Sequence record: PZ445134.1
Direction: 5' to 3' (one strand)
Origin: a phage
DNA: 64,000 nucleotides
Shown here: one piece after another, positions 27,402 to 36,895 of the stretch
Layout: each line of letters begins with the position of its first letter
Numbering within the stretch: the stretch's first letter is position 1
Notes under the pieces: model-generated
The model's database searches: none
Told to the model about the DNA's origin: nothing
The model's input: only the letters and a program-made list of their open reading frames with translations
Translations under genes and position numbers: made by a program

Positions 27402-27433
27402 TGATAGTATCACACATCCATGTGTTTGTAAAC
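27402..27433 (-). promoter_or_regulatory. sigma70-type early promoter (GTTTAC ... TGATACTAT)
   Basis: + strand atgatagtat ... gtaaac overlapping the alt stop codon. Confidence 0.4.
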
Positions 27434-29520
27434 TATCCTTGGACAAATTTAAACGGAACTGATTCTAAATCCATTAAAGATGCTAACAATTTCAATCCTT
27501 TAGGAGCACTAGTTTTTTCTACAAATGAGGAGAACGATACCGGCTCATCCGATTCGATTTCACCAGTCATAGCAACCACCTCGCCTGTTTCCATGAGAAC
27601 ATCACCATCGTAAATGACAGCTTCATCCAACTGGTCCGAGGACATGACTTCAGCTTGAATAAATTTAAGGTTGGATTCTAAACCTGCACCAGTGTCAGAT
27701 GACGCATCTGTGATTTTATTTATCTGCAAGAGAATGCCTCTAGGCAAAATAATTTCTTGCTCGTTAGGGTGATTACTCAACTGTCCAGGATAAATCACGT
27801 TAACTTTATGGGCGCCATCAATAGCCCATCCAACGTTAACACGGATTTGTTCTGGTGCATGCATAGCTGTTCTTACTTGACTAGGAGAAATAGTAACACC
27901 TTCGTCGTTATTATCAATGTTAAGCTCTTTGCGAACTTCTTCAGGAGCAAGTCCAAGGGCAACGTTCTCTTTAAACCCGCCGAAAATAATAGGAGCTAGT
28001 GAAGTGGAAACATAGTTTCTGAAGTAGAATACCTTATTTTTAACCATTGCTTCGTAAATAGGCATTCTGATAGACTGAGCTCTATATAACGTTAGTCCTT
28101 CAGGTAAACGGTCTCCATTTAAAAACGCTGAATCAAGACCATCAATAGCGCGTTTAACTTCACCTTCATCTGCAACATCGTAAAAATCTGGTTTATAACG
28201 ACCTAACAACATATTATTGATATCGGTATACGCAGAAGAGGCATATTCACGAATAGCTCGTTTTTCAGCAACAGAGTATTGTTTAGGGTCCCGATTCATT
28301 GTTATATTAAAGGTGCCTCTAGCCGATTCTCGTGCATAAGTATACATCACATTAGACAAGAACGCTGATTTACGTTGTTTCCAAGTTTTTTCAGATACTT
28401 CAGCTAAAACGTCGTCGGCCAGTTGGAAATTATCACGTCTAAAATCTTCAAACCATTCGTCTTTAATAGAGTCTGCAATTTCATTTGCAGCTTCAACAAA
28501 AGCAGCTAATGCTTTAACAGATGTTGTTTTTTCAGTTTTAATTTTCTTAGCAAACTTTTCTAAAGTTGGCTTAATAATACTACCATAAGAAACTTCATCA
28601 GCAAATCTAAAGGATTCATCAATACGATTATAAATCTTATTTTCGATATCAGCAACTAAAGTGCCTTTTGCAGTGGACGATGCTTGGGCTAGTACGATTT
28701 CATATGCTTCAGGAAGTAATTCGGCTGTAGCTGGGCCGCTAACTTCTTTAGCGGAATTTTCGTATTTCTGGAATAACTCACCTTCTTGGCGGTCAGCTTC
28801 TAAAGATTGACTTGCTGCAATAGCACGACGAGAAATTTTAGTACGAGCAATAACAGGCTTATCTTTACGTTTTTCTTCTACAGCAGCAATAGAACCAGCG
28901 ATAGCCGTTTCTTTGGTGACCTTTTCGCCAGTCTTTTTACTCACATAAACTTCGCCAACATCAGAATCTACTTTCGTGTACAACTCTGTGTTAATGTTAG
29001 GGATGCCTTTAATATCTTCAATGTTGGCATTTTTACGAACCATCATCACATAGGTGTGTTTACCTGTGAATTGATACATTGCCGACAATACTTTAAAACG
29101 ACCACCGGTTTTAGTAGAAACTAAACGAGCAAGAAGAGTTTGAAGTTGTTGTCCGCGTCCTTTCAATTTCTTTGTAGGGAATCGGAACAGAACTGCATCC
29201 ATACGAAGAGCTTTAACTTGTTCATATACTGTATTGAAAATGGTGTTGATTGCATCAATAGGAGCAGGACCAAGGCCATTTTTCAATTCAGCGAGATTAC
29301 CCTTTTCAGACAGACTCATAATAACAACATGAGCGTATTTGTCGCCAAGTTTAACTTGTTTTACAGCATCGCCTTCAGAAAGGTAAGAGAATAAGCGAAC
29401 TACGATGTTTGTATCAATATCACCAATTTTCCAGACTTGTGGAACTTTAGCTTTAGGGTTCAAATTGACGACAGGAAGGCTGCCTTCAGATTCAAACACT
29501 TCATTTAATTGTTCAGACAT
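27433..29520 (-). CDS. alt: ADP-ribosyltransferase Alt-like (packaged RNA polymerase-modifying enzyme)
   Basis: 695 aa; C-terminal ART signature: R in LYRAQ, STS in YVSTSL, E-x-E in NEQEIILPRG; T4 alt position between 54 and 30. Confidence 0.8.
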   Translation of the reverse strand: MSEQLNEVFESEGSLPVVNLNPKAKVPQVWKIGDIDTNIVVRLFSYLSEGDAVKQVKLGDKYAHVVIMSLSEKGNLAELKNGLGPAPIDAINTIFNTVYEQVKALRMDAVLFRFPTKKLKGRGQQLQTLLARLVSTKTGGRFKVLSAMYQFTGKHTYVMMVRKNANIEDIKGIPNINTELYTKVDSDVGEVYVSKKTGEKVTKETAIAGSIAAVEEKRKDKPVIARTKISRRAIAASQSLEADRQEGELFQKYENSAKEVSGPATAELLPEAYEIVLAQASSTAKGTLVADIENKIYNRIDESFRFADEVSYGSIIKPTLEKFAKKIKTEKTTSVKALAAFVEAANEIADSIKDEWFEDFRRDNFQLADDVLAEVSEKTWKQRKSAFLSNVMYTYARESARGTFNITMNRDPKQYSVAEKRAIREYASSAYTDINNMLLGRYKPDFYDVADEGEVKRAIDGLDSAFLNGDRLPEGLTLYRAQSIRMPIYEAMVKNKVFYFRNYVSTSLAPIIFGGFKENVALGLAPEEVRKELNIDNNDEGVTISPSQVRTAMHAPEQIRVNVGWAIDGAHKVNVIYPGQLSNHPNEQEIILPRGILLQINKITDASSDTGAGLESNLKFIQAEVMSSDQLDEAVIYDGDVLMETGEVVAMTGEIESDEPVSFSSFVEKTSAPKGLKLLASLMDLESVPFKFVQG

Positions 29521-29560
29521 AGTGTTTTCCTTTTAGTAATAATTTATATTTATGCCAAAA

Positions 29561-29576
29561 AGAGCCCGAAGGCTCT
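29561..29576 (-). terminator. UUCG-tetraloop hairpin upstream of alt
   Basis: agagcccgaaggctct reads AGAGCC-UUCG-GGCUCU on the - strand. Confidence 0.4.
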
Positions 29577-29764
29577 TAATCCACAATCGGGAGCAAAGTA
29601 CGATAAACTTCAAAATTAGGGCCTTTTTCGTACCCATTAACGTTATCTACGAAAACCCGATACGAATTTTCATTAGGAAAATCTAATATAATCTGAGAGC
29701 AAGAGGTGGAAACATCTCCACCATCCTTCTTAGCTACAATAACTGTTTCTAAATAAGCTTTCAT
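29576..29764 (-). CDS. hypothetical protein
   Basis: 62-aa ORF from MKAYLETVIV, UAAUG overlap with the DNA ligase stop. Confidence 0.5.
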   Translation of the reverse strand: MKAYLETVIVAKKDGGDVSTSCSQIILDFPNENSYRVFVDNVNGYEKGPNFEVYRTLLPIVD

Positions 29765-31257
29765 TATAAACCTGTCTGGGACCACGGTCCAAATACGTCT
29801 TCAAATGAATCCGCTTCTGTTTTATCAAAACGGAACCCTTTAATAATTGGAAGGAAAATACCTACAGTGCCTTCACGGCCTTTAGAATGAACCCAACCAT
29901 TACATTCACAATCAGCGATACGTCCAATTAATTTACCTTCACGAGCTTCGGTCATTAATCGTTCACGGTCTAAATCATGACGCTCGTCTAAAGGAATAAG
30001 AACCTTTACACCGTCAACTGTTTTATGAGATGTATCTTTAAAACCTGAACCACAATCGGTTGTAATACGACGACAACGTGATACGAGTTCGACACCACCT
30101 AATTTGTTAGGGTCTTTAGAGTGTTCATAGTATCCTACAACTTCTAAAGCGATATCAATAACTTCTTTAAATTTAATTAGGTTCTTAGAGCGTTTGTTTT
30201 CCCAATATGAATCACGGTTTTTAAGGATAATACCTTCAAGACCTTGGTCAACATATTTTTTATAAACCACTTTAGCTTCGTCAAGATTACGAACTAACTG
30301 ATTTTCAATTGGCTCAATTCGCTTAAAGCCTTCAGCCATATTTTCAAGAGCAGCAAAACGAACATCGTATTTCTGACCTTTAATTTTGCCATCAGAATAG
30401 ACTTCATCTAAAGGAACATAGTCCCAGGCTTGAAGAACCATACCTTCCGCTTCTTTAGGAGAAATAGTCCCTTGAAGAGATTTATTTGCTAAACCGTTTG
30501 AAGTGCTACGGTCTGCAACTTGTACTTCTTCAGATTCTTCATTATCACCAAATAAGAACGACAGATCATTTCCTGAGCTCACAGCCTTTTTAATATCGAA
30601 TGAATGATAAACTAATTCACCATCGATTAAAACCCCATTAGGGTGTCTTTCACGAGCTTCTTTAGTCATTTCCATTAGTTCATCCGCTAATAGAGTAAGA
30701 CCATGATATTCGTTACCGGCACGAGAAAAGAATTGAACACCACCATCGCGAACTTCAGCGAAACAACGAGCACCATCTGCTTTTAATTGGGCAAATGCAG
30801 GCCATTTAATATTTTTAGTAATCAATTTCTCATCATATGCAGATGCTAACATCTGTGGTTGCAATTGAATAAGTCCAGGCCACACCTTATTTGCGATAGA
30901 CACTGAAGCACCTACTTCAAGGTCGCGCATCATTACACGACGAAGGACTTCTACATCATCAGGTTTACCATCAGCGATATAACCCATGAGCTCTTTAATT
31001 GCAGCATTACCAGTGAGTTTACGAGTGGCTAATGTGAACTCAATAAAATCCAACATGTCATCTAATTCAAGAAGTCCATACGCTTGAGACCTTTCACCTG
31101 GTCCCGGCCATTTCTTAATATAATACTGGATACCACGTGCATATGTTAAACGATACACACGTTCAAGTAATTTGTTGTCCTTATTTTTCTTAAGGATTTC
31201 TTGTTTTGTTTTAGTAGAACCGATCGCAGCTATTTGGTTTAAAATATCTAAAATCAT
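29764..31257 (-). CDS. 30: ATP-dependent DNA ligase
   Basis: 497 aa; adenylation lysine motif KADGAR; T4 gp30-like throughout. Confidence 0.95.
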   Translation of the reverse strand: MILDILNQIAAIGSTKTKQEILKKNKDNKLLERVYRLTYARGIQYYIKKWPGPGERSQAYGLLELDDMLDFIEFTLATRKLTGNAAIKELMGYIADGKPDDVEVLRRVMMRDLEVGASVSIANKVWPGLIQLQPQMLASAYDEKLITKNIKWPAFAQLKADGARCFAEVRDGGVQFFSRAGNEYHGLTLLADELMEMTKEARERHPNGVLIDGELVYHSFDIKKAVSSGNDLSFLFGDNEESEEVQVADRSTSNGLANKSLQGTISPKEAEGMVLQAWDYVPLDEVYSDGKIKGQKYDVRFAALENMAEGFKRIEPIENQLVRNLDEAKVVYKKYVDQGLEGIILKNRDSYWENKRSKNLIKFKEVIDIALEVVGYYEHSKDPNKLGGVELVSRCRRITTDCGSGFKDTSHKTVDGVKVLIPLDERHDLDRERLMTEAREGKLIGRIADCECNGWVHSKGREGTVGIFLPIIKGFRFDKTEADSFEDVFGPWSQTGL

Positions 31258-31523
31258 TTGATGTCCTCGATTTTGGTTACGGTTCTATTATAAGCCACTT
31301 CATCTAGAAGCGATTTCAGCGTTTTCTGATAAGTGGTAATCCGTTTACCGAGACCTTCAACATAATATTCTGAAATGTAGATGAACCCTTGTTCAACACA
31401 CTCTTTAAATATTTCTGCGTCTTTTACTGAACGAAACATTGGCCAGTCTCGAAAGAACATGTTAACGTGACCGTAGTCACGCGTTGTGTTTTTGCCATCT
31501 GTAATATCATGAACTACAAACAT
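31254..31523 (-). CDS. hypothetical protein (30.1-like)
   Basis: 89-aa ORF in conserved position. Confidence 0.6.
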   Translation of the reverse strand: MFVVHDITDGKNTTRDYGHVNMFFRDWPMFRSVKDAEIFKECVEQGFIYISEYYVEGLGKRITTYQKTLKSLLDEVAYNRTVTKIEDIK

Positions 31524-31532
31524 AATTAACCC

Positions 31533-32348
31533 TTAACAATTTATAGACCAAGTCCATTTAGACGAATCTAAAGGAAAGTTTTGAATCGTCCACCATGGCT
31601 GCATATTGGTTGGTCCTGGGGTTCGCCAGGTATACGGATTCGACGGACCGCCAATTTGATTAGGCCATGCACCTGGACTTGTTGTACCAGATTCTTTAAG
31701 CAAATCCGCCAATCGTTTTAAAAGGTCTTCACGATCTGAATCTGAATTATGCTCGGGTGGAACCAAACGAGATTCAATATCATCCCACGTGTGTACACGT
31801 TGTGCAGTACGAGGAATGGCATCACGTTCACCACGAGCCAACCAATAAATCGGTACATTAAGAATTTCTGCTGCATGGTCACAGTGATGAGCTAAATCGT
31901 CAACGTAACAAATCACGTTATATTTTGTTTTAGCTAGTTCGAATAATTGTTCCTTTGAAGAATCATGACCACACATCATTACTTCAGAGAAAGCGCCTGG
32001 GAACAAAGCATTCAAATTAAATTGTCTATTCAATCGAGCATCAATTGAATCACCTAGCGCCGTCACAGCTACAAAATTATAGTCTTCTTTTAGTTTATTG
32101 ATAACACGAAGAGCATCCGAATAAGGCGCTAAGTAACGAATAAAATCAGAGCGATTATATTTTTCTATTAATTGTTTACCGAGGTTATCGTCGGTATTGA
32201 ATAGTTTACCAGGAGAAATAAATTTTTCGTCCTGAATCATTTTTAAAATATGTTCTAATGGAAGATTATATTTTTGGGCAAAATAAGGAAGTCCAGATTG
32301 CCAGCTTAAACATACACCATCAATATCAGTCAAAATAGTAGGTTTCAT
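31533..32348 (-). CDS. HAD-superfamily hydrolase-like protein (30.2-like)
   Basis: N-terminal DxD motif ILTDIDGV typical of HAD phosphatases/5'-nucleotidases; Trp/Pro-rich C-terminal tail. Confidence 0.6.
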   Translation of the reverse strand: MKPTILTDIDGVCLSWQSGLPYFAQKYNLPLEHILKMIQDEKFISPGKLFNTDDNLGKQLIEKYNRSDFIRYLAPYSDALRVINKLKEDYNFVAVTALGDSIDARLNRQFNLNALFPGAFSEVMMCGHDSSKEQLFELAKTKYNVICYVDDLAHHCDHAAEILNVPIYWLARGERDAIPRTAQRVHTWDDIESRLVPPEHNSDSDREDLLKRLADLLKESGTTSPGAWPNQIGGPSNPYTWRTPGPTNMQPWWTIQNFPLDSSKWTWSINC

Positions 32349-32797
32349 AAAGAGTCTCTTAATAGGTTTAACACATCAATAAATTCAGCTTCGGTTAGTA
32401 TTGTATCATCTTTTGTTAGGTGGCTGGCCATGCTGTGCTTCAAAATTTTTCCTTTAGAGGCTTGTAAGGCATCACGAAACCCCTTGTTTTGGATCGCGGC
32501 TTCAAAATATGCATTTGTGTATAATTCTTTCCACGCTTCGGAGTATCTTGAAAATGGAACTCCTAACCAGAAGAGAGTCCCACGGTCCTGAGCTCTTGCA
32601 TAAGACCTTCCGGCTTGCTGTGCAGCCAATCCAGACAACCTAAATATACGTTTTTGTTGTTCAACATTTTTCACCTTACATCCTTGGAGAAATCCTTCAA
32701 GTCCTCCGAATTGAATACCATCCATAACAAAAGGCCATTGAGCAAAGTTACTTAATGCACATGACGGCCATGGAAAATTGCTTCTGATTTCAATCAT
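32345..32797 (-). CDS. NADAR/YbiA-like domain protein (30.3-like)
   Basis: 150 aa; LSNFAQWPFVMDGIQF...GFLQGCKV resembles the NADAR (YbiA-like) fold signature. Confidence 0.5.
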   Translation of the reverse strand: MIEIRSNFPWPSCALSNFAQWPFVMDGIQFGGLEGFLQGCKVKNVEQQKRIFRLSGLAAQQAGRSYARAQDRGTLFWLGVPFSRYSEAWKELYTNAYFEAAIQNKGFRDALQASKGKILKHSMASHLTKDDTILTEAEFIDVLNLLRDSL

Positions 32798-32988
32798 AGT
32801 CTTTTAAGGCTTTTGATAATTTCTAATTCAGAACTCATGCGAACGTCTTCAGTTCCATCGACCCATAGGACGGTGTAGGCTTCTTTAATTTGAGTATTAC
32901 CTAATTTAAAAGCAGGTAGAACCTTTGAAATCATTCCAGGAATACCTATGCCTTTTAACTGGACCGTTTGCGATAAAAATAGTTGCAT
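32794..32988 (-). CDS. hypothetical protein
   Basis: 64-aa ORF with 4-nt overlaps on both sides. Confidence 0.5.
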   Translation of the reverse strand: MQLFLSQTVQLKGIGIPGMISKVLPAFKLGNTQIKEAYTVLWVDGTEDVRMSSELEIIKSLKRL

Positions 32989-33275
32989 TAGAACCTCATC
33001 TGGAAACCGTGTGATTTAACATTACCACCGTAGATGTCAGAGGTGTTGACTTCACGGGCGGCACTAGGGTCGATATTGATATCGTGGTTGAGCTTAGTGA
33101 TTGCTAAGGTATCACGACCGTTAACAGTACGGAATTCTACCGGGCATACAACATCAGCATAAGCCTTAATAGATTCACGAGTAGGTTGTTTGTCGGCAGG
33201 AACGTCTTTACCTGCTTTAGAGAAAACAACTTCACAGAAATTTTTACGAGTATCGAAATAAGTGGTCATAAACAT
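32988..33275 (-). CDS. hypothetical protein
   Basis: start chosen at MFMTTYFD (GAGGAAA Shine-Dalgarno upstream); the longer track ORF would run through a terminator hairpin. Confidence 0.5.
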   Translation of the reverse strand: MFMTTYFDTRKNFCEVVFSKAGKDVPADKQPTRESIKAYADVVCPVEFRTVNGRDTLAITKLNHDINIDPSAAREVNTSDIYGGNVKSHGFQMRF

Positions 33276-33290
33276 AATATTTTCCTCAAA

Positions 33291-33306
33291 GGAGGCCGAA
33301 GCCTCC
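33291..33306 (-). terminator. UUCG-tetraloop hairpin
   Basis: ggaggccgaagcctcc reads GGAGGC-UUCG-GCCUCC on the - strand, followed by U-tract. Confidence 0.45.
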
Positions 33307-33316
33307 ATTTTTAAGA

Positions 33317-33682
33317 TTAGATATCGAATTCGTTAAGAACTACATCAAAGATTGCTTCGAGATGTTCAGGTTTAGCTCGGTTACTCAGGATATGACGAAT
33401 CCAAGTTTTAACCAGAAGTTTACGATTAACACCGTTCCAGCAAGGATGAGTACCTAAATCACGTTGACGGAAATCATCATCTAATGCAATTTTGAAGTTG
33501 GAACCTTCCATCGTGATTGAAACCGTGATGCCATTTTCAAATCGCATATAAACGTAATTAGGAGTCATATACTGCTCAATTTCGCATACTGAACCGTTAT
33601 TATGCTTCCATAAGCAAATTGTATCGATAGAACCAGCAATACCGTTAGAAACATATTTACGTTCGAAGTTGATGTAGTTCAT
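33317..33682 (-). CDS. hypothetical protein
   Basis: 121-aa ORF with GGAG Shine-Dalgarno and early promoter upstream. Confidence 0.55.
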   Translation of the reverse strand: MNYINFERKYVSNGIAGSIDTICLWKHNNGSVCEIEQYMTPNYVYMRFENGITVSITMEGSNFKIALDDDFRQRDLGTHPCWNGVNRKLLVKTWIRHILSNRAKPEHLEAIFDVVLNEFDI

Positions 33683-33721
33683 TTTATTCTCCAGATGTTT
33701 AAGTTGTTTGTTGGTACAGGT

Positions 33722-33752
33722 CTATAGTAACACATCCTACAGGAGAGTAAAC
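33722..33752 (-). promoter_or_regulatory. sigma70-type early promoter (GTTTAC / TGTTACTATAG)
   Basis: + strand ctatagtaaca ... gagtaaac. Confidence 0.45.
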
Positions 33753-33787
33753 ATCTTTTTAAACTTTTTCTGCCCTAAACGCACAAA

Positions 33788-33805
33788 AGGGAGACCGAAG
33801 TCTCC
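33788..33805 (-). terminator. UUCG-tetraloop hairpin
   Basis: gggagaccgaagtctccc reads GGGAGAC-UUCG-GUCUCCC on the - strand. Confidence 0.5.
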
Positions 33806-33811
33806 CTAAAA

Positions 33812-33991
33812 TTATGCAACAACCTTTCCAAAACGAGAAGCATCATCTCGAAGAACTGCACGTGCTCTGCGCATGATCTTCTCAACTGTTTGATTAATAC
33901 GAGAGTTCGACCCACGCTTGTATCCAGCGCGTTTAGAGGTACCATCAACTTTCTTTTCTACTGCTTTCTTTGCTTTAGCTTGTTTTGCCAT
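33812..33991 (-). CDS. small basic hypothetical protein
   Basis: 59-aa ORF translated by hand (MAKQAKAKKAVEKK...), Lys/Arg-rich, below the ORF-track cutoff. Confidence 0.4.
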   Translation of the reverse strand: MAKQAKAKKAVEKKVDGTSKRAGYKRGSNSRINQTVEKIMRRARAVLRDDASRFGKVVA

Positions 33992-34260
33992 TATAAATTC
34001 TCTTTAAATGAAAATGCAGGACTTATTGACATTGCCTGCTCAAGCCCTCAAGGGGAACATAGGTTTTGGATATTTAACGACAGGGATAACCATAAACCCG
34101 TCATCATACCGACCACGACTTAGACAGATAACCTTTTTCTGACGCGTGATAGTACAAAATACATTCAAGAGGTACACCGTAAAATTGTCGGGGCGGTACT
34201 TCTAAAACATACCGATTCGCAAATCGATAATCAGACAATTCGACGGCTCCTCGATTTAAC

Positions 34261-34509
34261 TTACTTCAGGGTAATAACAAAATGACGAACTGCTTTACGT
34301 GCTGCAGAAGCCAGAGGCTTAGCATATTTCAATTCATCTTTCTGAACCAGGATATCGCGAAGATCGGCTTGTGCTGGATTCAGATGTTTGAAATACTGTA
34401 AGATTTCAAGAGCTTCGGCTTCAACATCAATAGATGCGCCGTAATTGTCATGGCCATTATTCCATGCATGGCGTTGCAGTTCAAGAGCGTGTTGTAATTG
34501 TTTAATCAT
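34261..34509 (-). CDS. rIII: rIII lysis inhibition accessory protein
   Basis: 82 aa, T4 rIII size and position between the 30.x ORFs and gene 31. Confidence 0.7.
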   Translation of the reverse strand: MIKQLQHALELQRHAWNNGHDNYGASIDVEAEALEILQYFKHLNPAQADLRDILVQKDELKYAKPLASAARKAVRHFVITLK

Positions 34510-34633
34510 TTTAAATTCTCAATTCGAGATAATACTTAGTAGCCACGTTCTTCTGAATTTCACTTTCTTTCGACAAGTCTCTCAGTTGTAGGCTACCGCT
34601 TAGAAGAGTGTTCTCTTCATATAGTTATTTATA

Positions 34634-34966
34634 TCACTTATAAAGACATGGAATAGCTTTATAGTGGCATGTTACGAATTTCTGTTTAATTTCTTTAGGT
34701 TGTTTAAGTCCCAAAGCCACAAATGGATGTGGAACATTTCGAATTTGTCCAACTGGTAGTGGAGTCAAATCACCGACTTCAACAAAACCTTCAGGAACAT
34801 CAGGACCTACAGAATGAACTACACATAGTTCAGGAACTTCACCTTGAACACGTTTACCAATCACAAGTCCTGATTCGGTAACTTCTTCATCACCTGCTTG
34901 AGCTGGTTCAGAAACCAGAATGACATATTCACCAACAGCACGAATTGGGAGTTGTACTTCAGACAT
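34634..34966 (-). CDS. 31: head assembly co-chaperonin (GroES analogue)
   Basis: 110 aa, [28 protein letters not shown]..., recognisably T4 gp31. Confidence 0.92.
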
Positions 34967-35023
34967 CTTATTTCCTTGTTGTTTGACGATAGATTAATAA
35001 TACTATACTATTCGTAAAGCATA

Positions 35024-35332
35024 TTACATAAGAAGCAAACGTTCCACCGGAGTACCATCAACCGAAATTACTTTATCAAGGCGGAAAGAACGCCACTGAC
35101 CTAACTTGGTGTCGAATGCTCGAACTGATTCACGAGGTTCATAACGAACTTCTGTTGCCGGATTGTTATTTTCATATTTGACTTCAAGTTCATCGCGCGA
35201 AGCAAACATAGTGCGTACCTCACCGTTAGCCTTTTCAAATACAACACAATGAACGCCTACAGACAGAATAGTTTTAATACGTTCACGAAGAACCATAGTT
35301 TCTTGTTCAGTTAAAATCATATTATTCACCAC
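35024..35332 (-). CDS. hypothetical protein
   Basis: 102-aa ORF between cd and gene 31. Confidence 0.5.
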   Translation of the reverse strand: MVNNMILTEQETMVLRERIKTILSVGVHCVVFEKANGEVRTMFASRDELEVKYENNNPATEVRYEPRESVRAFDTKLGQWRSFRLDKVISVDGTPVERLLLM

Positions 35333-35903
35333 AAAAGTTTCGGATTTGTTCCCAATTCAGAGAACGAAGATTATTACGAGAGTACTGAATTACTTCAATA
35401 CCGGCTTGTTTTAGAATGTCTGCCCAATTTTCAGGAGATCTGTCATATAATTCTGCGTATACAACCTTTTTAATACCTGACTGCGTAATAGCTTTAGTGC
35501 AATCAGGACACGGAGAAAGCGTCGTATATAACGTAGCACCTTCAATAGAATTACCTTTACGAGCTGCAAACAAAATTGCGTTCAATTCCGCATGGATTTC
35601 GTTATTAGCAGACCATGCACTATGAGCGGCCCGATGTTCTTTAGCCAAAACAAAATTATCTGCCCGTCCAAATGCTGTAGTGCCTTCTTTATGACCAGCA
35701 ACGATGACCGGGCTTGGTTTATTCTTCAACCAACCGTTTTCGGATGCATGTTCGCAACAGTTTGTACCACCTGAAGGAGAGCCATTATAACCTGTAGAAA
35801 TAATGCGTCCATCTTTTTCAATGACGGCACCAACTTTCCATGAACAACATTTTGATTCTTGAGAAATCAGATATGCAATCTGAAGGTATGTGCTAGCTTT
35901 CAT
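35322..35903 (-). CDS. cd: dCMP deaminase
   Basis: 193 aa; zinc-binding deaminase motifs HAE(L) and PCxxC (SPCPDC). Confidence 0.92.
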   Translation of the reverse strand: MKASTYLQIAYLISQESKCCSWKVGAVIEKDGRIISTGYNGSPSGGTNCCEHASENGWLKNKPSPVIVAGHKEGTTAFGRADNFVLAKEHRAAHSAWSANNEIHAELNAILFAARKGNSIEGATLYTTLSPCPDCTKAITQSGIKKVVYAELYDRSPENWADILKQAGIEVIQYSRNNLRSLNWEQIRNFCGE

Positions 35904-36895
35904 TATTGAACCTTATTAATATAAGTTAACAGCTCTTTAGTTTGTTCCCAACTGATGCACGCATCGGTAATGGAAACGCCATAGGACATATTATCAGAAA
36001 TTTTTTGATTTCCTTCATGTAGGAATGATTCTATCATAATTCCTTTGACCAAATCATTAGCTGCTAAATTTTTACCAATACCAATTTGATTGCTATAATA
36101 CCCATCAGCGTTTGCATGGCTACAGTCAACCATTACATAATGATTCAGACCTAATGCACTTGCTTTGTTAGAAGCTTCTTGAATATCAGAAGAATGATAG
36201 TTCGGGCCGTTAGTCCCGCCACGCAATACGATATGCGTATTCTGATTACCTTCAGCTTCAACAATGCCTACAGTACCATCGACGTCCATACCCATATACC
36301 GATGAGGCCAGGCGGCACTATACATCGCGTCTGTAGCTACTTTAATAGAACCATTGGTTGCGTTCTTGAAGCCTACGCACATCGGTAGACCTGAAGCAAT
36401 TTCACGATGTGTCTGACTTTCAGTCGTACGGGCGCCAATAGCAACCCATGAGAAAATACCAGAAAGATACTTAATCGTGAATGGGTCTAATACTTCAGTT
36501 GCTAATGGAAGTCCCATACGTAGAAGTTTACGACACAATGTTCGTGCAACTATAAGACCGTGGTTCATATCAAAACTTCCGTCAAGATATGGATCATTTA
36601 CAAGACCTTTCCAACCTACGGTAGTTCGAGGCTTTTCAAAATAAACGCGCATCACTAACAGAACATTAGGAAGACGAGTTTGAAGTTCAGCCAGACGTTT
36701 GCCATATTCAACAGCAGCAATAGGGTCATGAATTGAACAAGGACCTACAACAATAAGTTTGCGTGGGTCTTCACCGTTCATAATCGAATTAACTTGTTCG
36801 CGATGAGAAGCCACTTGTGATGCGTAAGCTTCCGACAAAGGAATAATCTCAGCCAGTTCTTTTGGAGAAATAAGTTTTCTGATGACAGGTAACAT
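35903..36895 (-). CDS. 3-deoxy-D-arabino-heptulosonate-7-phosphate (DAHP) synthase, class I (AroG/F/H-like)
   Basis: 330 aa; motifs GPCSIHD, EKPRTTVGWKGL, GARTTESQ, CSHAN, ESxLxEGNQ and SITDACI align with E. coli AroG active-site and metal-binding residues. Confidence 0.85.
   Translation of the reverse strand: MLPVIRKLISPKELAEIIPLSEAYASQVASHREQVNSIMNGEDPRKLIVVGPCSIHDPIAAVEYGKRLAELQTRLPNVLLVMRVYFEKPRTTVGWKGLVNDPYLDGSFDMNHGLIVARTLCRKLLRMGLPLATEVLDPFTIKYLSGIFSWVAIGARTTESQTHREIASGLPMCVGFKNATNGSIKVATDAMYSAAWPHRYMGMDVDGTVGIVEAEGNQNTHIVLRGGTNGPNYHSSDIQEASNKASALGLNHYVMVDCSHANADGYYSNQIGIGKNLAANDLVKGIMIESFLHEGNQKISDNMSYGVSITDACISWEQTKELLTYINKVQ

Follow-up and report, generated by a model that had tools for sequence, protein, structure and literature searches.

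The 150-aa product of the gene at 32345..32797 (minus strand) in phage sequence record PZ445134.1 is very probably a minimal NADAR-fold glycohydrolase, the Mosigvirus ortholog of T4 AdfN, that would counter the host DarTG1 system. The window analyzed was a stretch of 64,000 nucleotides. The anti-DarT1 function of adfN was published between 2023 and 2025 and has been independently confirmed, and the function identified is therefore one that is already known. Orthology, an intact frame, the NADAR fold, a Glu/Lys/His triad, the C-terminal helix, and purifying selection were observed here for the window allele. The features of the locus were as follows.

32345..32797, minus strand: adfN (gene 30.3), intact allele encoding a phage-type NADAR, putative guanine-ADP-ribose DNA glycohydrolase by T4 orthology (Pfam, T4 alignment)
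32696..32698, minus strand: codon of E34, equivalent to T4 AdfN E36 and PnNADAR E43 (T4 alignment; invariant in 40 family members)
32675..32677, minus strand: codon of K41, equivalent to T4 AdfN K43 and PnNADAR K50 (T4 alignment; kept by ≥90% of the 40 family members)
32435..32437, minus strand: codon of H121, the last-strand histidine typical of phage NADARs (invariant in 40 family members)
32348..32392, minus strand: C-terminal helix, last 15 codons, residues 136 to 150, TEAEFIDVLNLLRDSL region (DNA alignment, model)
32345..32348, minus strand: ATGA overlap of the adfN stop and 30.2 start (ORF coordinates, alignment)
32794..32797, minus strand: ATGA overlap of the 30.4 stop and adfN start (ORF coordinates, sequence)
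32794..32988, minus strand: 30.4, 64-aa ORF (ORF coordinates)
31533..32348, minus strand: gp30.2, 271 aa, HAD-like (ORF list, sub-threshold HAD_2)
29764..31257, minus strand: ligase gene 30, ATP-dependent DNA ligase, DNA_ligase_A_M (Pfam)
27433..29520, minus strand: alt, ADPrib_exo_Tox, E=7.5e-28 (Pfam)

The ORF at 32345..32797 was found to run from ATG to stop, and a longer ORF is impossible because in-frame TAA-AAG-ACT precedes the ATG and leaves no alternative upstream start. The protein was matched by Pfam PF08010, Phage_30_3 (“Bacteriophage protein GP30.3”), with E=3.9e-69 and 231.3 bits against a cutoff of 36 bits, the alignment covering profile positions 2 to 138 of 138, and also by PHROG 652 (E=1.4e-51). 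Identity to T4 gp30.3 extended to 141 of 149 residues (95%). By megablast, a close DNA homologue of adfN was present in about 677 phage records, the nearest at the DNA level being Escherichia phage vB_EcoM-RPN187 of the genus Mosigvirus (99.1%). The neighbors of adfN were of the T4 type (gp30.7, DUF3045/gp30.1, ligase, Alt, alt.1, and gp31/Cpn10), and the surrounding gene order agreed with that of both T4 and RB69. From the T4 identity, these neighbors, the shared gene order, and the RPN187 match, the window was assigned to an RB69-like T-even phage of the genus Mosigvirus, and the gene was identified as an intact ortholog of T4 30.3 (adfN).

Johannesman et al. (Nat Commun 2025, PMC11825919) gave T4 30.3 its new name adfN, for anti-DarT factor NADAR. 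Deletion of adfN from T4 or T2 abolished plaque formation on DarTG1 hosts, ectopic AdfN expression rescued RB69 on such hosts, purified T4 AdfN removed ADP-ribose from DarT1-modified DNA, and AdfN was found to provide de-ADP-ribosylation of phage DNA during infection (PMC11825919). Function was partly lost in the E36A and K43A mutants (PMC11825919), and transposon insertions in 30.3/adfN were lost on DarTG1 hosts, making the gene conditionally essential (HIDEN-SEQ, bioRxiv 10.1101/2025.11.20.689424). Altogether, experiments have established T4 gp30.3 as a NADAR-fold DNA ADP-ribosylglycohydrolase with specificity for guanine-ADP-ribose, which T-even phages need to resist DarTG1 and which suffices for this resistance (PMC11825919, PMC11125620, PMC11543638). 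In earlier in vitro work, T4 gp30.3 cleaved guanine-ADPr but not thymine-ADPr (PMC11125620), and a 2026 paper reported that cytidine-ADPr was not removed by the T4 NADAR (PMC12945103). The sequence-only reading of the product as NADAR-like and directed against DarT is thus borne out by the published activity of an ortholog with 95% identity. Its wider suggestion that a DarT-like defense is countered holds for DarTG1, which targets guanine, and not for DarTG2, which targets thymine.

Enzymatic activity, guanine specificity, and the anti-DarTG1 phenotype would be expected of the window protein by transfer from T4 AdfN. In the proposed mechanism, the DarT1 toxin of host DarTG1 would ADP-ribosylate guanines of the phage DNA and so block replication. 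AdfN would hydrolyze the N-glycosidic bond that joins ADP-ribose to guanine N2 in DNA, and removal of the adduct by this “orphan antitoxin” would restore replication.

Proteins of the PF08010 type, of which 3228 were retrieved by profile search, were not confined to T4-like phages. One bearing the histidine was found among housekeeping genes in a Limnocylindrales MAG, with others on phage-like contigs of >300 kb. No DarT neighbor was found beside the three distant PF08010-type NADARs at L020 5001-5447, L022 5001-5525, and L024 5001-5456. This distribution, in bacteria and on phage-like contigs of very large size that have no DarT gene in the vicinity, would fit a broader counterdefense against ARTs, in which the main substrate is G-ADPr in RNA (tRNA/mRNA) or the products of other guanine-specific ARTs. 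RNA G-ADPr was indeed removed in vitro by representatives of all NADAR families (PMC12945103), and the discussion in PMC11825919 speculates that some counterdefenses may detoxify other ADP-ribosylating systems. Nevertheless, this substrate preference appears unlikely, as the sole in vivo phenotype known from removal of the T4 ortholog is a failure to plate on DarTG1 hosts, accompanied by loss of the de-ADP-ribosylation of phage DNA. It also extends the DarTG1 explanation more than it replaces it.

DarT1 toxicity in uninfected Escherichia coli was not rescued by T4 AdfN, and non-T-even phages were rescued only in part (PMC11825919, PMC11125620). T4 AdfN is fully active only in T-even infections, and a further phage factor or context therefore contributes to its action. 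The product of the gene following adfN, gp30.2 (31533..32348, minus strand), begins MKPTILTDIDGV, with a DxDGV motif that resembles HAD motif I; its matches to HAD_2 (Pfam, E=0.019) and to the 5'(3')-deoxyribonucleotidase 2jao (PDB, E=0.49) were sub-threshold. The ATGA in which adfN ends and 30.2 starts suggests translational coupling of gp30.2 to adfN. It is improbable that gp30.2 is the T-even factor needed for full AdfN activity, for instance by processing the released ADP-ribose or by helping to localize the enzyme, or else that the Mosigvirus allele, with its eight substitutions and shifted start, has a substrate range different from that of T4. Beside three distant adfN relatives, one in a bacterial MAG and two on contigs of >300 kb, no gp30.2 homologue was found; the second gene downstream in locus L022 belongs to the NT5C family but had no significant similarity to gp30.2.

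The minus-strand gene order was alt, alt.1, gene 30, 30.1, 30.2, and then adfN. The placement of adfN next to DNA ligase and alt in the sequence-only reading was correct insofar as all three belong to the same gene string, but two genes lie between ligase and adfN, and alt is ∼2.8 kb away. With alt downstream on the same strand at this distance, adfN could in principle serve to reverse or edit the phage's own ADP-ribosylation by Alt, ModA, and ModB. Such a role is highly improbable, given that the string alt, alt.1, 30, 30.1, 30.2, 30.3 is the ordinary conserved T-even gene order and that the phage NADAR has not been reported to hydrolyze ADP-ribose linked to protein. The published specificity is for guanine-ADPr, with neither T-ADPr nor C-ADPr being cleaved (PMC11125620, PMC12945103), and no phenotype of the T4 30.3 deletion has been reported without DarTG1 (PMC11825919, HIDEN-SEQ preprint). 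The functional connection with alt, which had synteny as its sole basis in an order conserved in all T-even phages, was therefore not retained.

No ART domain was detected by Pfam in the seven proteins scanned, indicating that no DarT toxin adjoins adfN. The gene is an orphan, flanked by those for gp30.2 (HAD-like) and gp30.4, and its product has no DarG1-type N-terminal extension. A PADLOC scan returned no DarG1-like match; the phage NADAR family is too diverged from the models of defense systems. When 29500..35500 was scanned for promoters and terminators, the number of sites was no higher than in shuffled sequence, so that a “gene 30 operon” transcription unit is neither supported nor denied; the label derives solely from gene orientation and the overlapping stop and start codons.

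Several further observations were made in the surrounding region. The gp30.6-like ORF at 32988..33308 (minus strand) is listed with 106 aa, but its PHROG match starts at residue 12 and the RPN187 version is annotated with 95 aa, which points to an internal ATG (MFMTTYF...) 33 nt downstream as the probable true start. T4 gene 30.5 is missing between 30.4 and 30.6 in the window, as it is in RB69. Within 30.3, T4 annotates an overlapping out-of-frame gene of 75 aa, 30.3'. The corresponding frame in the window (32563..32667, minus strand) is open for only 34 aa, so that 30.3' lacks conservation and is unlikely to be a genuine gene. A 330-aa DAHP synthase (DAHP_synth_1, E=1.7e-74) is encoded at 35903..36895 (minus strand), immediately upstream of the dCMP deaminase gene (cd). 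DAHP synthase catalyzes the first step of aromatic amino acid synthesis. The gene occupies this place in RPN187 and is absent from it in T4 and RB69. It has the appearance of an auxiliary metabolic gene gained by this Mosigvirus sublineage.

The N-terminal segment originally noticed as NADAR-like, LSNFAQWPFVMDGIQFGGLEGFLQGCKV, corresponds to residues 15 to 42 in the translation of the ORF. With the single sequence, a PDB search gave YbiA (2b3w) as the sole match, and a weak one (E=0.23). With the family profile, YbiA was matched at E=8.8e-4, and hhalign of the family against E. coli YbiA gave a probability of 93.9% and E=1.5e-7. The resemblance is therefore real, being weak with a single sequence and significant with the family profile. 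The Pfam NADAR family PF08719 was also matched by 11 of 40 family members. AlphaFold2 modeling gave a pLDDT of 80.8 with a 10-sequence alignment and a pLDDT of 95.6 with a pTM of 0.90 with a 40-sequence alignment. The 150-aa protein was predicted to have the helical core and small flanking sheets of the NADAR fold, and 132 of its residues aligned to 8bau, making it core domain throughout. Similarity to NADAR/YbiA folds was thus found by both sensitive profile comparison and structure prediction.

In both the PDB search and hhalign, E34 was aligned to the glutamate of the SEH sequence of YbiA, and the pair E34/K41, seven residues apart, was aligned to the YbiA motif SEHYFQAQK. The lysine, equivalent to T4 K43 and PnNADAR K50, would function in phosphate coordination. 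H121 lies in the sequence LKHS. The hhalign alignment stops at K120, opposite YbiA V124, and its extension by one residue places H121 opposite YbiA E125. The glutamate to which E34 is equivalent (T4 E36, PnNADAR E43) contacts the distal ribose (PMC11825919, PMC11543638), and the spacing of seven from Glu to Lys is also found in PnNADAR (E43/K50) and the E. coli C7 NADAR (E88/K95) (PMC11543638). Phage NADARs (gp30.3 proteins) are defined by a His in the last strand, at a position taken by Glu in YbiA/NADAR proteins and by Asp in DarG1 (PMC11543638, PMC11125620).

Of the known systems closest to the window protein, T4 gp30.3/AdfN shares with it the 30.4-30.3-30.2 position, the Glu/Lys/His residues, the C-terminal helix, and a core-only NADAR fold. 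The T4 protein differs in belonging to Tequatrovirus and having 152 aa, whereas the Mosigvirus allele has 150 aa and eight substitutions. DarG1 proteins (BC4488 type; for example, 8bat from Geobacter lovleyi and the E. coli C7 NADAR) carry an N-terminal extension and have 219 to 234 aa, with Asp at the last-strand position and the gene beside darT1. None of the features by which the DarG1/BC4488 group is recognized (Asp, extension, darT1 neighbor) was found in the 150-aa window protein, an orphan with His in the last strand. The phage NADAR also differs from the DarG1 antitoxin in that, by published accounts, it does not neutralize DarT1 outside T-even infection. In YbiA (2b3w) and the Phytophthora NADAR (8bau), the last-strand residue is Glu, and the window protein, with His121, lacks this mark of the YbiA family. 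C-ADPr is removed by YbiA and classic NADARs but not by the T4 NADAR (PMC12945103).

Besides its activity on C-ADPr, YbiA has a riboflavin-related N-glycosidase role. In both structure and sequence, E. coli YbiA ranked among the top matches, and some database relatives carry the name “YbiA (DUF1768 family).” That the window gene is an auxiliary metabolic gene for such an N-glycosidase, acting on riboflavin-pathway intermediates or small nucleotides, is nonetheless scarcely probable, as the last-strand glutamate that defines the YbiA family (E125) gives way to an invariant histidine in the phage protein and the role of the ortholog was established by experiment to be DNA de-ADP-ribosylation (PMC11825919).

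In RB69, a T insertion at nucleotide 411 truncates gp30.3 by its last 15 residues and so deprives it of the C-terminal helix, a change that correlates with, and has been given as the cause of, its sensitivity to DarTG1; the helix is required for full AdfN activity (PMC11825919). RB69 belongs to the same genus, and its DNA is near-identical to the window over most of the gene, but the DNA alignment showed that its extra T and premature TGA are both absent from the window allele. The window frame is open to the T4-type stop codon, ending ...LNLLRDSL, and a helix was predicted by AlphaFold2 at residues 136 to 149. Against T4, the DNA identity was 88.6% and the protein identity 95%, with dS of 0.53, dN of 0.043, and dN/dS of 0.08, and adfN is under strong purifying selection. 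None of the eight differences among the 149 aligned residues fell at an invariant column. Despite the example of RB69, with its frameshifted 137-aa, DarTG1-sensitive allele, an inactive or decaying copy is hardly credible in view of the intact frame, the full set of catalytic residues, this dN/dS value, and the 14 other complete sampled alleles (15 with the one at a contig end) that were also intact.

Megablast spans of 450 versus 451 and 452 versus 454 bases had raised the suspicion that the RB69-type frameshift is common in Mosigvirus. This was ruled out by translating eight records and seven IMG/VR loci (14 complete alleles, or 15 including one cut by a contig end), which were all intact ORFs of 150 or 152 aa, so that the RB69 allele is the sole exception; the differing spans reflect gaps in the alignment where the 5' end is divergent. 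Similarly, tblastn alignments ending at residue 142 were an artifact, with direct translation showing full ORFs. At 32789..32797 (minus strand), the T4-type start codon has been lost in the window, RPN187, and ST2 alleles. The start lies two codons later than in T4 (MIEIR versus MSELEIR, 150 versus 152 aa), and an ATGA overlap has been gained with gene 30.4, which ends differently.

Public annotation of the gene was uneven. In most public T-even genomes adfN is still a “hypothetical protein,” and in some it is miscalled or omitted; it can be renamed adfN with confidence. In slur08 (L015), gp30.3 is annotated as an N-terminally shortened protein of 126 aa though the 152-aa ORF is intact, and in SHSML-52-1 (L016) it is not annotated despite an intact 152-aa ORF. 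The homologue in Serratia phage 4S (P0025) bears the name “DNA ligase,” and ST2 (L018), a 171-kb T4-like record, is classed under Kagunavirus.

The remaining value of the finding lies in annotation and in a prediction of resistance, rather than in the opening of a new biological question. Given its intact adfN allele, the phage is predicted to resist DarTG1 and to plate on E. coli carrying this system, unlike its relative RB69, which is of use in forecasting the host range of T-even phages intended for therapy.
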